64,000 nucleotides of DNA from Picochlorum sp. SENEW3 (lineage: Eukaryota). This document shows, in pieces, positions 28,611-63,760 of the stretch. The translations under genes and the position numbers were made by a program. Below the pieces are notes generated by a model, which saw only the letters and a list, made by a program, of their open reading frames with translations, did not search any database and had not been told where the DNA came from. The stretch spans positions 124,001 to 188,000 of the forward strand of contig CP120463.1 in the NCBI GenBank assembly GCA_034226945.1. Reading direction: 5' to 3'. Within the stretch, counting starts at the first letter, position 1; each line of letters starts with the position of its first letter.

Positions 28611-28683
28611 CACCGAATCAGGGGCTCGAACCCTGGACCACCAGGTTAAGAGCCTGGCGCTCTACCGACTGAGCTAATTCGGC
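28611..28683 (-). tRNA. tRNA-Lys(CTT)
   Basis: GCCGAATTAGCTCAGTCGGTAGAGC-G-CCAGG CT CTT AA CCTGG-TGGTC-CAGGGTTCGAGCCCCTG-ATTCGGTG, followed by a T8 Pol III terminator. Confidence 0.97.
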
Positions 28684-45381: not shown

Positions 45382-45453
45382 GGGCGTATAGTCTAGTGGT
45401 ATGATACTTGCTTAGGGTGCAAGAGGTCTCGAGTTCGATTCTCGATTCGCCCC
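45382..45453 (+). tRNA. tRNA-Pro(AGG)
   Basis: GGGCGTATAGTCTAGTGGTATGATA-CTTGC TT AGG GT GCAAG-AGGTC-TCGAGTTCGATTCTCGA-TTCGCCCC. Confidence 0.95.
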
Positions 45454-60395: not shown

Positions 60396-60854
60396 TCAAA
60401 GTCCCTTGTAAAAAGCCTCTAAAAATGGGCTCATACCCGTCTCTTTGTGTACTGTATCCTTGGCAGGATTCTTCACATACTGAGACACCAAATGATGCCG
60501 TTGCTTGTGGTTCATCAAGATCATTTCTAACTCCTCTCGCCCCTTGTATATCAAAATGTCTATCGCCGATGGATCTCTTACCTGAGAGTTCTTCCTGATC
60601 ATATCAGATACATTCCTTCTCATCTCAGCCATCGTTGTCAACTCCTCTAGCTTGTACTGTCTCATGATTGTTGGAAGGCAACGGCCAACCTGCAACACAC
60701 AACCATGCCAATCGAACCGCACCCAACAAAATCATCCACTTCAAGATACACCTACCTCCCTGAAGAATTCAAGGCTCTTTACAGACGCTCCCTGACTCAC
60801 AGCGTGAGCCACCCGAGAACCGAGTTCAACATTCTTCTTTGCCAGCGCTGACAT
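60396..60854 (-). CDS. NDUFA6: Complex I subunit B14/NDUFA6 (LYR family)
   Basis: Exons 60756-60854 and 60396-60689. FFREVGRCLP..YKL, DPSAIDILIYKG, HKQRHH and SPFLEAFY. Confidence 0.88.
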
Positions 60855-61178
60855 GATATTATTACAACAATATCATTTAAATTGCACGACTGCATAGTGA
60901 ATTGAACGTGGTTGGACTGAGGAATGAAATCCCTAGCACGTCAGCCTTAATTAAGGCGCGAGAGCTCTCGAATCCAGGCTCTTGCCACTTGGCCCCGGAT
61001 CCGGGAATGGGCATTGCAAAAACTCTCTTTGCAATGGATATTCCCTATCGATAGCAATTATGAAAAACATGTGATTAATATATTGGGGATTGAAGGTGTG
61101 TTTTGAACTTGATGTGCTCGATTCTTTTTTTCTGCATGCCGCTTTTTGAATGCGGCCCAGCGAAGGGCCCCTGTATAT

Positions 61179-61248
61179 CCCGATGATGGTACACATTAAT
61201 CTTTGAGAACGGAATACACAATGTTGATATTATAGCATATCCTGAGGG
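61179..61248 (+). ncRNA. Box C/D snoRNA guiding 18S Cm38 (snoR66-like)
   Basis: CCC/GGG stem, C box ATGATGG, guide TTAATCTTTGAGA (61196-61208) antisense to 18S UCUCAAAGAUUAA, D' CGGA, C' ATGTTGA, D CTGA. The D+5 rule gives C38. Confidence 0.85.
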
Positions 61249-61584
61249 TTTGGGTAGAAGGCCATACGTCAGTATATTCTCCGTGCGGATCCCTGTTTTC
61301 CAATGAGGGAAAAACCGTCCCAAACCAGCTGACAAGATGAACGATTGCCGTGTATCGCTTCTGTATACGTTTGGTATACAGTAGATGCGCTGCAATTATA
61401 TATTGTAACGCCTATACGCCTTCTGACTGACGTTTTGAATGTGGGTCTGTAGGGCTCTTTGAGGCTGCTGCTGTAGGAGTGAGTCAGAGGTATCCTCGAG
61501 ACGAAAGGAGGTTTACTCTTGTTGGCAGCATTCTGATCATGTTCAGGGTGAGTAGTATTGATACGTGTAGTTCTGTCGCTTTGT

Positions 61585-61665
61585 GAGAGGATGAAGATTG
61601 GATAGTTTCACACATCCTGATGTTCAAGATGATGAAACCATATCGCTGCGTTCTTTCTGACTCTC
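61585..61665 (+). ncRNA. Box C/D snoRNA guiding 5.8S Am43 (plant snoR9-like)
   Basis: GAGAG/CTCTC stem, C ATGAAGA, D' CTGA, C' ATGATGA, guide TCGCTGCGTTCTT antisense to 5.8S AAGAACGCAGCGA, D CTGA. D+5 gives A43 (yeast numbering). Confidence 0.9.
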
Positions 61666-61793
61666 GCAAATGACAGTGTTGTTGTATGCGAGCATATGAA
61701 GAAGAAATCAAAAACAAAATCTTAGGACACCTTCAGAGGCATGAATACAATGCCAATGAGACGACAATTTCTGCTGATGCTGGCTGTTTGTGG

Positions 61794-61886
61794 GAAACTC
61801 ACTGATGTGAAAAAATAACTTTCGTTCTACTGAAGTCGACACGACGCTGTAGAAGAAATTATTTGGAGACCTGAACTGAGAGTTTC
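61794..61886 (+). ncRNA. Box C/D snoRNA guiding 18S Am974 (snR54/U59-like) with a second LSU guide
   Basis: GAAACTC/GAGTTTC stem and variant C box CTGATGT. Guide AACTTTCGTTCT before D' CTGA. Second guide TTGGAGACCTGA before D CTGA. Confidence 0.85.
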
Positions 61887-62038
61887 ATTGGTCACAGCGA
61901 ATTCTAGCGTGCTATGTCTAAACTTTTTTTGAATGCGGTGCAGGGGCATTCATTTTTTTTGTTTTGGATACGTGCTGCTGCATGTACAGCAAGTGGGTAC
62001 GTAAGCAGACATCTATCTGATTATACAAAAAAGACAAG

Positions 62039-62116
62039 GCCGGTGAAGATATTCCATCCATAATTGAATCACCTGATCACGGGATGAATCTTTAACATGC
62101 ACCACTATCTGATGGC
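62039..62116 (+). ncRNA. Box C/D snoRNA guiding 18S Um1269 (U33/snR55-like)
   Basis: GCC/GGC stem, C GTGAAGA, D' CTGA, C' GGATGA, guide CATGCACCACTA before D CTGA. D+5 gives U1269 (yeast numbering). Confidence 0.88.
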
Positions 62117-62197
62117 TTTGTGCTAGTATTGCACGTTCGTTCATAACCTGTGGCTGAGTGCAGGCTCTTTTCAACGAATGAATATATTGCAAGGTAA

Positions 62198-62442
62198 GGG
62201 CGCAGTGCGAAGGGCCACTTCGGCGTATCCTTAATTGTTATGATTAGGGTGAGAATGCTGGGTGAAAGTCCCCGGGCGACCAGGCAGAGAGTGCCATCCC
62301 GAGAGGGAAAGACCCACTCCTGCCGATCACATGTGATCGGCGGTGTGGCAGTTCGCCATAGTTACAGTTATGTGGCCAGCAATATTATGCCATTGGTATA
62401 ATATTGTGAACAGAACGGGGCTTATTCTTGCACTGACGTCCC
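62198..62442 (+). ncRNA. RNase MRP RNA
   Basis: P4 halves GAAAGTCCCC (62264-62273) and AGAACGGGGCTTA (62412-62424). MRP-diagnostic P8 GGCA-GAGAG-TGCC with GARAR loop, P9 TCCC-GAGA-GGGA, and P1 GGGCGCAGTGCGA/TTGCACTGACGTCC. Confidence 0.93.
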
Positions 62443-62552
62443 CCCTCTTTTTTATGTACAGGTTCCTGGGACCATGACATATCATGCAACAAATAAATGG
62501 TGCGCTCTTTTGTAGTTTGTGTGCACGAGATGCTATTTTGGTAGGGACATTA

Positions 62553-62631
62553 CGGTATGATGATAGAACATTACCACAGACCTGTTCTGAGATATGTAAT
62601 GCTGAAATGGTTTCATGCACCACTCTGACCG
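62553..62631 (+). ncRNA. Dual-guide box C/D snoRNA for 18S Gm1428 (U25/snR56-like) and Gm1271 (U32/snR40-like)
   Basis: CGG/CCG stem and C box ATGATGA. Guide CACAGACCTGTT with D' CTGA, C' ATGCTGA, guide CATGCACCAC with D CTGA. Confidence 0.92.
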
Positions 62632-62821
62632 ATTCGAGTCCACAAATATCAACAGGTCTCTCGTAGTTTGACAGAGTTGATGCATTTTGTCATCATACAA
62701 CATGCTACTGCAGATTGAATGAAGCAAGCGATAATAACAATAATTACTGTTATTCCCATATACTGTATTGATTATATATTTTTTACATTCACAACAAATA
62801 GTTGTCTACTCTAATACATAG

Positions 62822-63760
62822 TTACTCTTCTTCAGCGACATCTCCAACGATTGGCTCAGCTGGTCTCTCAATCACTTCGCTAACCTCGGCGGAATAATCA
62901 CCGTGTACTTCCATGAGCTTGTTGAGATCAAACTTTGGAGCTCTCAGGAGCTTCACCTTGCGGACAAAGACATTCTGAAGAGGATAAATTCCTTGGCAAG
63001 CCTTCTCAATTTCTTTACCAATAGCTTCTGGGATAAACTTTCCTACCAATTCCTTAAGATCACAAGAAGTGGCTTCTCTAGTCATGATTTCAACCATCTT
63101 GGCACGGATCTGACGGATCTGAGAACTGCGGGCATACGCAGTCTTCTTTACCTGACCCTGGCGCTTCTTTGTGAAGCCAATGCAGAACATGCGAAGATAA
63201 TAGTTATCGGTGGTCTTAACATCGACGTGAGCCTCGATCAAAGTCTGCCACTTGCGGACAAGAGAGCGGAGCTTGTCTGTGGTGAGGTCCATTCCATAGA
63301 AGTGAGTCAGGCAGTTGCGGCCCTGCACGTCTTCTACACGAAGCTTGACATTACGGTAGGCATCAGCCTCATTCTTCTGCAAATCTGCAAGGGATACATT
63401 GATGACTCTTCCCTTGAGCCCATCGGAGGCAATCTTAGTACCCTGAGTACGAGTCACCAAGGTCTTTCCGATGTTCTTCACGTTGAAGATTGTTGGTGCC
63501 TTAATATCATACCAATCCTTCTTAGCGAATGGATCCTGACTGCATACGTATTCAATAGAGTACAAGTCAGATGATGGTTCGAAAACGTCAATGGCGGATT
63601 CCGCCGACGCCCAGACTGGCGACAACGAATATCCCCCAAACTCCGATTTGGATCACACCAATCCATCGTTCATTGTTCAATCATTCTAAAAAGAAACGTA
63701 CGCCTTCTTCTTTCCTCCCTTCTTTCCCTTGGACAAACGTTTATTCTTTCCCACAGCCAT
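62822..63760 (-). CDS. RPS3A: 40S ribosomal protein S3a (eS1)
   Basis: Exon 63702-63760 ([19 protein letters not shown]) plus 62822-63539 ([22 protein letters not shown]). Confidence 0.98.

Follow-up and report, generated by a model that had tools for sequence, protein, structure and literature searches.

RNase MRP RNA is generally treated as the product of an independent gene, mostly one that RNA polymerase III (Pol III) transcribes, and the question raised by the locus described here is how this RNA is made when its sequence lies inside another transcription unit. The locus belongs to the green alga Picochlorum sp. SENEW3 and was analysed in a window of 64,000 nucleotides (nt), positions 124,001 to 188,000 of contig CP120463.1 (assembly GCA_034226945.1), part of a compact chlorophyte genome whose G+C content is near 44%. 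In this window, the gap between a LYR-family gene, which we take to be NDUFA6, a name also used by an initial annotation of the same DNA, and the gene of ribosomal protein S3a (RPS3a) is filled by a host gene whose content is six C/D small nucleolar RNAs (snoRNAs), one candidate H/ACA snoRNA and the RNase MRP RNA. The likely answer is that MRP RNA is a further product of a non-coding snoRNA host gene transcribed by RNA polymerase II (Pol II), from whose transcript it is spliced out, debranched and minimally trimmed; the MRP RNA is probably made by splicing and not, as in most studied organisms, from a promoter of its own.

The splicing data are assembled contigs from four of 19 listed sequencing runs, X1, X7, X10 and X12, where X12 is an oligo-dT library, X10 is an oligo-dT run, and X7 and X12 come from different studies. 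X1 behaves as DNA, with zero joints and with reading through the introns of both flanking genes; in X7 and X12 the flanking genes are spliced, and joints also occur within the gap. As shown in Table 1, the RNA contigs give four GT-AG joints on the + strand, two of which are common to X7 and X12 and none of which occurs in X1, and the chain of joints ties the MRP intron to those with snoRNAs by way of exons of 53 and 30 nt that they share. The intron 2 joint of X7 is listed as 61548>61947 with six letters between the two sides, which is read as a joint between 61547 and 61944, the strain having in addition a lengthened T tract. An intron-less DNA copy of the locus was not seen in the DNA-like X1. 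The host exons are non-coding and hold no conserved frame, because the longest ATG frame in the fully spliced exons has 35 codons, exon identity is low (29-38% to relatives in exon 2) and other strains carry frameshifting indels, with exon 2 differing by 1-, 2- and 3-nt indels; a small peptide encoded by the exons was considered and is ruled out by the short frame and the low identity. One spliced non-coding transcript of the + strand thus runs through the gap. The initial annotation had proposed such a transcript, divergent from NDUFA6, and had named the absence of a spliced host transcript among the observations that would speak against it; GT-AG joints were found in both X7 and X12. Pol II is the probable polymerase, since an oligo-dT library with spliceosomal joints points to it. 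No single contig or long read covers the whole gene, and a single start and a single full-length precursor are what we infer.

The fourth intron of this transcript consists almost entirely of MRP RNA. The match is full length, lies above the gathering score of the family and contains the P4 regions and the GARAR loop, which places the RNA in the family; from this membership the RNA may be expected to assemble with Pop1 and partner proteins and to cleave pre-rRNA in internal transcribed spacer 1, the role given for the family in PMC7277114. The MRP RNA accounts for 239 of the 268 nt of the intron, the splice donor lies 6 nt upstream of the match, and the fold of the intron has z = -4.5. The predicted branch site CTGAC falls in the 3' strand of helix P1. 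After its adenosine, A62436, there is no A for 17 nt, and the next A is just 8 nt from the intron end, while CTGAC or CTAAT stands 23-28 nt from the intron end in intron 1 (a branch-like CTGAC at -27/-23), in RPS3a and in the P450 gene of the window. Because the spacing of CTGAC is typical and the next A is too near the intron end, the branch point, judged from the letters, almost has to lie inside the MRP RNA. The initial annotation was right to place MRP RNA in the host gene; its list of donor motifs did not contain GTAAGG, the donor of the intron that MRP RNA has to itself, and it understated the oddest part, namely that the RNA fills this intron nearly end to end and overlaps the predicted branch site.

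Table 1. Features of the host gene and of the two genes flanking it, in positions of the window.
Feature	Positions	Strand	Basis
LYR-family gene (NDUFA6-like), divergent flank	60396..60858	-	Pfam Complex1_LYR; one 66-nt intron, joint in X7 and X12
Host exon 1	61038..61095	+	Spliced contig in X12; 5' end presumably at or upstream of ~61038 (bin depths, 56-letter side)
Intron 1, GTGTGT...TAG, 357 nt	61096..61452	+	GT..AG joint in X12, depth 15.6
C/D snoRNA 1, snoR66/SNORD96-like	61177..61250	+	Rfam below cut-off; D' guide to 18S C38, 13 WC, 0/60 shuffles
H/ACA snoRNA	~61268..61405	+	Putative, by two-hairpin fold around H box; no Rfam hit
Host exon 2, 95 nt, non-coding	61453..61547	+	Contig joints
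Intron 2, GTGAGT...CAG, 396 nt	61548..61943	+	Joint in X7; carries three C/D snoRNAs
C/D snoRNA 2, snoR32/R81/Z41-like	61583..61667	+	Weak Rfam match; D guide to 5.8S A43, 13 WC + 1 GU, 0/60 shuffles
C/D snoRNA 3, snoR31/Z110/Z27-like	61688..61784	+	44 bits against cut-off 45; D' guide to a U of large-subunit rRNA
C/D snoRNA 4, Z159/U59	61795..61885	+	53.9 bits against cut-off 39; D' guide to 18S A974
Host exon 3, 53 nt	61944..61996	+	Contig joints
Intron 3, GTACGT...CAG, 167 nt	61997..62163	+	GT..AG joint in X7 and X12; carries snoRNA 5
C/D snoRNA 5, SNORD33/Z195-like	62036..62118	+	Rfam E 0.00023, below cut-off; D guide to 18S U1269, 11 WC + 2 GU
Host exon 4, 30 nt	62164..62193	+	Contig joints
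Intron 4, GTAAGG...CAG, 268 nt	62194..62461	+	GT..AG joint at depth 3.7 in X7 and 15.4 in X12; not in X1
RNase MRP RNA (RF00030)	62200..62438	+	Rfam 104.6 bits against cut-off 50; model 1-266 of 266
Predicted branch site CTGAC, 3' strand of helix P1	62433..62437	+	A62436 bulged in fold; 26 nt from intron end
Host exon 5, 38 nt given splicing of intron 5	62462..62499	+	Start by joint; end predicted
Predicted intron 5, GTGCGC...CAG, 214 nt	62500..62713	+	Seen retained only; carries snoRNA 6
C/D snoRNA 6, snR56/snR40-like double guide	62553..62630	+	Rfam below cut-off; D' guide to 18S G1428, D guide to 18S G1271
Predicted last exon	62714..62798	+	RNA cover in X12 reaches about 62798, where it meets the 3' end of the convergent RPS3a mRNA
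Ribosomal protein S3a gene (RPS3a), convergent flank	62822..63760	-	Pfam Ribosomal_S3Ae; intron joint in X7
WC, Watson-Crick pairs; GU, G-U pairs.

The layout recurs in relatives. A motif taken from this MRP RNA was used for one scan of metagenomes, which gave 58 loci (cited here by L numbers); together with the window, these fall into 22 groups by clustering. The full order of NDUFA6-like gene, seven guides with MRP RNA in the same place, and RPS3a is found again in L006, L047 and L030, where the NDUFA6-like protein is 99%, 78% and 63% identical, respectively, and the covered part of the layout is found in L009; this is the comparison of synteny that the initial annotation had recommended. 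Against L047 and L030, the RNAs are 60-87% identical and the exons 17-53%. A splice donor stands at the MRP 5' end in 20 of the 21 groups that have a 5' flank (AG/GT in 17, AG/GC in 3) and begins 15-19 nt before the first conserved MRP region, where the background per five-position window is 2.0% for AG/GT and 4.5% for AG/GC. L002, the first member of one group, was set aside for its adapter-like 5' flank and the other members were used; L039 is the one exception without splice signals at MRP. GC for GT at this donor was noted in L012, L016, L057, L032 and the L004 group, in a context that is otherwise donor-like. Sixteen groups are window-like, here called green-type, and in 14 of them CTGAC with the bulged A is invariant while neighbouring P1 pairs vary; in the remaining two, CTGAC occurs just downstream of P1, 25-40 nt beyond it. 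L058, which is one of these two, has an SMC4 gene as neighbour; the best named relative of that gene comes from Cymbomonas (55%), and the layout therefore reaches distant green algae. Five groups have another design, in which the donor itself starts P1, YAG/GT follows 18-23 nt after the last conserved region, and CTRAY is lacking. Among these, L003 precedes an endonuclease V gene with haptophyte named relatives; a database protein has its start directly behind the predicted acceptor, at the first codon there, together with the C-terminus of the spliced form, and this is a weak hint of splicing that a choice of start or a contig edge could explain equally. The group counts show conservation and not independent origins.

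In L003:81-1226 and L058:2901-4300, the MRP intron lies directly upstream of a same-strand frame (endonuclease V and a glycosyltransferase, respectively), which suggests, on sequence grounds, that introns in the 5' untranslated regions of protein genes may act as MRP hosts in these two lineages. Among 83 open reading frames, a search for protein-coding hosts whose frame is restored by removal of the MRP intron gave none that is convincing; 10 had a Pfam hit, none spanning the junction. Tandem MRP intron units, up to three and 460-580 nt apart, were observed in L043, L056, L038 (~2840-4030 in L056) and L025:2868-4334, and occur in one haptophyte-type and one green-type locus. In many green-type loci, and also in L039, a guide for 18S U1269/G1271 shares the strand of MRP and is no more than 800 nt away from it; no such motif was seen on the opposite strand. 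In L039:2941-3210, a C/D-like RNA with this guide starts about 15 nt past the MRP 3' end, and an intron-less V-ATPase B gene adjoins. The link between MRP and the U1269/G1271 guide may be older than the intron layout.

In the mechanism proposed for the window, Pol II would begin transcription slightly upstream of 61040, in the direction away from the NDUFA6-like gene, and the transcript would then be spliced, the exons being disposable and the intronic products being six C/D guides, one H/ACA guide and MRP RNA. The spliceosome would set the MRP 5' end 4-8 nt before helix P1, and branching would take place at the adenosine in the P1 3' strand. In the debranched RNA, P1 would close with that A bulged, MRP proteins would protect the RNA, and exonucleases would trim a few nt at the 5' end and about 20 nt at the 3' end; the locus would then be the cell's source of MRP RNA. 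It has been reported that the intronic RNase P RNA of Drosophila is released by debranching and exonucleases (PMC6797745).

The same Pol II host could instead deliver MRP RNA and some of the snoRNAs mainly by endonucleolytic cutting of the unspliced precursor, with splicing as a side route. Endonucleolytic separation must exist here because three snoRNAs share intron 2, and a splicing-independent path was seen with Drosophila RNase P RNA reporters in PMC6797745. X7 contains RNA unspliced across the MRP donor, and intron 5 is retained in both RNA runs. For intron 5, the initial annotation had expected a snoRNA intron with a GTGCG donor, and splicing from this donor at 62500 was not seen in X7 or X12; a donor-like motif stands at the matching place in 4 relatives, and an acceptor at 62655 was dropped in favour of 62713, which L006 matches. 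The X7 and X12 contigs run unspliced through the intron 5 donor though intron 4 has already been removed, so the MRP intron is spliced efficiently or early, which does not fit splicing as a side route. The cutting route also leaves unexplained why green algae and haptophyte-type loci keep a donor at one end of the RNA and a branch motif at the other, and we regard it as unlikely to be the main source.

It is quite unlikely, in our estimate, that MRP RNA is a nested gene with its own type 3 Pol III promoter and terminator, the spliced-out copy being degraded. Pol III is the usual mode for MRP, with signals in 26 of 26 insects surveyed in PMC4287351 and the same mode given in PMC8287931, and animal MRP is described as remaining under Pol III (PMC4287351, PMC6797745). 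In the green alga Ostreococcus tauri, MRP RNA is likewise reported as intergenic, uncapped and followed by a T stretch (PMC7671301). The T6 run of the window at 62448-62453 would fit a terminator, as would the T7 runs of L006, L047 and L025. Nevertheless, a T run of at least 5 follows P1 in 5 of the 22 loci with a 3' flank and is shorter than 5 in the other 17, and the run in the window reads as a polypyrimidine tract of AT-rich genomes. The + strand of the region has no match to CCCAYAA, resembling the upstream sequence element (USE), a consensus that may not be this alga's own; a USE-like motif at most 110 nt upstream of MRP was found, with a loose match, in 2 of 23 loci and not in the window. 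Moreover, the 100 nt upstream consist of an unconserved 30-nt exon and the tail of another snoRNA's intron, and a nested gene leaves the fixed donor at the MRP 5' end in 20 of 21 groups unexplained. For the cluster as a whole, the initial annotation had cited internal T runs against a single Pol III transcript, and these are present at 61125 (7), 61924 (7) and 61953 (8).

The possibility that the excised intron stays a 2'-5' lariat circle in which MRP RNA works or is stored, the junction closing helix P1, is very doubtful: the loop 62194-62436 (243 nt) would hold all but the last 2-7 nt of P1, the two joined nucleotides sit at the same P1 end, and stable snoRNA-bearing lariats exist in vertebrates (PMC8609340), but the vertebrate lariats are described there as inactive as guides and often have a C branch point where an A is predicted here, and CTGAC lying 25-40 nt past P1 in two green-type groups means that a tight circle is not required. 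The boldest extension is equally doubtful, namely that MRP RNA is a spliceosomal intron in many green algae and, separately, in haptophytes, with its ends set by the spliceosome, P1 serving as the branch site, a 2'-5' lariat that accumulates or works, and supply tied to splicing and to the co-transcribed guides.

Several observations weigh against release of MRP RNA by splicing from the Pol II host and have to be set beside those that favour it. The RNA evidence consists of contigs, which carry no strand, molecule ends or lariat reads. X7 is only guessed to be RNA, and the oligo-dT run X10 gave zero joints, its cover being sparse. Two X12 joints have sides of 21-22 letters, below the 30 at which the tool warns; exon 4 itself is just 30 nt, and X7 gives the same joints. 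Besides the retention of intron 5, X7 has an unspliced contig across the MRP donor; this contig ends at 62431 while X1 continues, and the predicted branch A is 5 nt further on; such an end, in one contig from one study, is no evidence. The T6 run lies 10 nt 3' of the MRP RNA and is usable as a Pol III terminator, and TATAT stands at -17 of the RNA. Pairing in P1 would compete with U2 small nuclear RNA for the branch site, which is a cost to the model. Finally, the loci were found by a motif of this MRP RNA and the groups are related, so the 20 of 21 groups with a donor are not independent events.

The guide RNAs of the host were examined by testing 12 segments beside D or D' boxes against heterologous eukaryotic rRNA pieces from public collections, the criterion being at least 10 nt of rRNA complementarity with a paired D+5 nucleotide and guide shuffles serving as control. 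A scan aimed at the 3' half of large-subunit rRNA returned no sequence. Eight of the 12 segments, at least one in each of the six C/D RNAs, show 10-14 Watson-Crick pairs with the D+5 nucleotide paired; for seven guides the observed score was reached by 0 of 60 shuffles, and for the eighth, compared with four rRNA pieces, by 0 of 30 on each piece. In these pieces, the D segments of snoRNAs 1 and 3 and the D' segments of snoRNAs 2 and 5 had no target above shuffles. The six sites claimed by the initial annotation, 18S C38, A974, U1269, G1271 and G1428 and 5.8S A43, are all among the targets of the eight guides, with 10-13 Watson-Crick pairs and 0/60 shuffles, and two further guides address large-subunit rRNA. 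In the numbering of the fetched rRNAs the six sites are 18S C38, A972, U1266, G1268 and G1424 and 5.8S A42, that is, 0-4 nt off the yeast-style numbers. Methylation of rRNA at the target sites is predicted from these pairings.

Among the six C/D RNAs, only that at 61795-61885 exceeds its Rfam gathering score. SnoRNA 1 is 75-94% identical in 3 relatives. The D' guide of snoRNA 3 has 14 Watson-Crick pairs in three of four large-subunit pieces and 12 in the fourth (0/30 shuffles each), and this RNA shares its family name with the Arabidopsis guide listed for 25S Um2651, SnoR31.1/SnoR10, in the RiboMeth-seq table of PMC8053127. According to that table, 5.8S Am47 and 25S Um2651 of Arabidopsis carry methylation, and the guides assigned to them bear family names that also occur here. 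SnoRNA 4 has, in addition to its D' guide, a D guide to a G of large-subunit rRNA, each with 12 Watson-Crick and 1 G-U pairs and 0/60 shuffles; for the D guide of snoRNA 5, 0/60 shuffles reach the score, and the two guides of snoRNA 6 have 12 Watson-Crick pairs (D') and 10 plus 2 G-U pairs (D), again with 0/60 shuffles each. The five C/D snoRNAs of the initial annotation are thus all present in their places, to which the overlooked snoRNA at 61688-61784 has to be added, together with the H/ACA RNA at ~61268-61405 and the second, large-subunit guide of the U59-like RNA. Its arrangement of snoRNAs between donors and YAG acceptors agrees with the four joints, although not with one RNA per intron, since intron 1 holds two RNAs, snoRNA 1 and the H/ACA RNA, and intron 2 holds three; two of its four donor motifs do recur elsewhere in the window, GTACGT in RPS3a and GTGAGT in the P450 gene. 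As a side result, 40 prokaryote genome records (L061-L105) carry eukaryotic 5.8S rDNA motifs, several with 18S or 28S rRNA, which is assembly contamination.

H/ACA snoRNAs are defined by two hairpins, separated by box H and closed by box ACA, and by a bipartite pocket 14-16 nt from the box. The candidate H/ACA RNA here has its box H at 61335-61340 and an ATA variant of box ACA near 61400. Its first hairpin is kept with compensatory changes in 4 sequences and the pocket is conserved in 4 of 4; the H box is canonical in 3 of the 4, and the second hairpin is poorly alignable. The 5' pocket fits the 18S rRNA of L067 near U360, with a 3' side of 3 bp only, and probably guides pseudouridylation of 18S rRNA near this position. 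In snR30/U17, the m1 and m2 motifs are conserved in the 3' hairpin, with m2 seven nt before box ACA. That identity was considered for 61268-61405 and rejected, as it is the 5' hairpin that has the m1/m2 motifs, and L047 and L030 differ in the m2-like letters.

Around the host gene, about 170 nt (60870-61037) separate the RNA cover of the NDUFA6-like gene from host exon 1 and form a candidate bidirectional promoter, in which a stretch near 60927 resembles what we take to be a telo-box. The P450 gene adjoins the locus; its top named relative is CYP97B1 of Parachlorella kessleri (73%), and sequences without a name are closer. Rfam also marks two tRNA genes in the window, at 28611-28683 (-) and 45382-45453 (+).

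Spliced non-coding snoRNA hosts, intronic snoRNA clusters and intronic RNase P RNA are all established already. Chen et al. 2008 reportedly found intronic snoRNA clusters in Chlamydomonas with several snoRNAs per intron. In the Candida clusters presented in PMC5033589, fungal non-coding snoRNA hosts are, as here, spliced transcripts with intronic snoRNAs and tiny exons, and the account of these hosts does not describe an MRP RNA in them, whereas one intron here is MRP RNA. The same report gives zero-length exons of fungal hosts, as in recursive splicing; such exons were also observed in L030 (~2200) and L009 (~420), where an acceptor AG abuts the GT donor before the SNORD33-like intron. The intronic RNase P RNA of insects and crustaceans (PMC4287351, PMC6797745) is, like the RNA here, a catalytic RNA of the P/MRP family from a Pol II intron. 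Its reported hosts are protein genes, whose introns leave long flanks around it (353 nt in a 701-nt intron), unlike the present case, which concerns MRP RNA occupying 239 of 268 nt, overlapping the predicted branch site, in a non-coding snoRNA host. For the red alga Cyanidioschyzon merolae, one sentence of bioRxiv 10.1101/2025.12.01.691491 annotates MRP RNA inside a spliceosomal intron; it is likened to the present case by intronic position only, as that sentence comes without description of host, intron fit or branch overlap. Ostreococcus tauri (PMC7671301) is similar in being a green alga whose snoRNAs are polycistronic and intronic, the latter also in clusters, and differs in its MRP RNA, which is read there as a Pol III gene. 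No description was found of MRP RNA that fills an intron of a green alga or haptophyte, that does so within a snoRNA host, or that overlaps a branch site, in literature that did not take in two comparative MRP surveys, the Chlamydomonas snoRNA paper and the promoter table of PMC8287931, which could bear on novelty.

The sole well-studied switch of this RNA family to intronic production is that of the sister RNA, RNase P RNA, and here MRP RNA itself, an essential catalytic RNA, appears to be an intron of a snoRNA host. A splice signal appears to be built into the terminal helix of MRP RNA, and the layout recurs in green algae and in haptophyte-type loci. Algae that can be grown in culture allow tests of whether MRP levels are set by splicing, how U2 reaches a branch site sequestered in P1, and whether a lariat form exists, and it can likewise be asked how often the P/MRP family has moved from Pol III into introns. 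The layout also provides a practical rule for annotating MRP RNA and hidden host genes in algal genomes.

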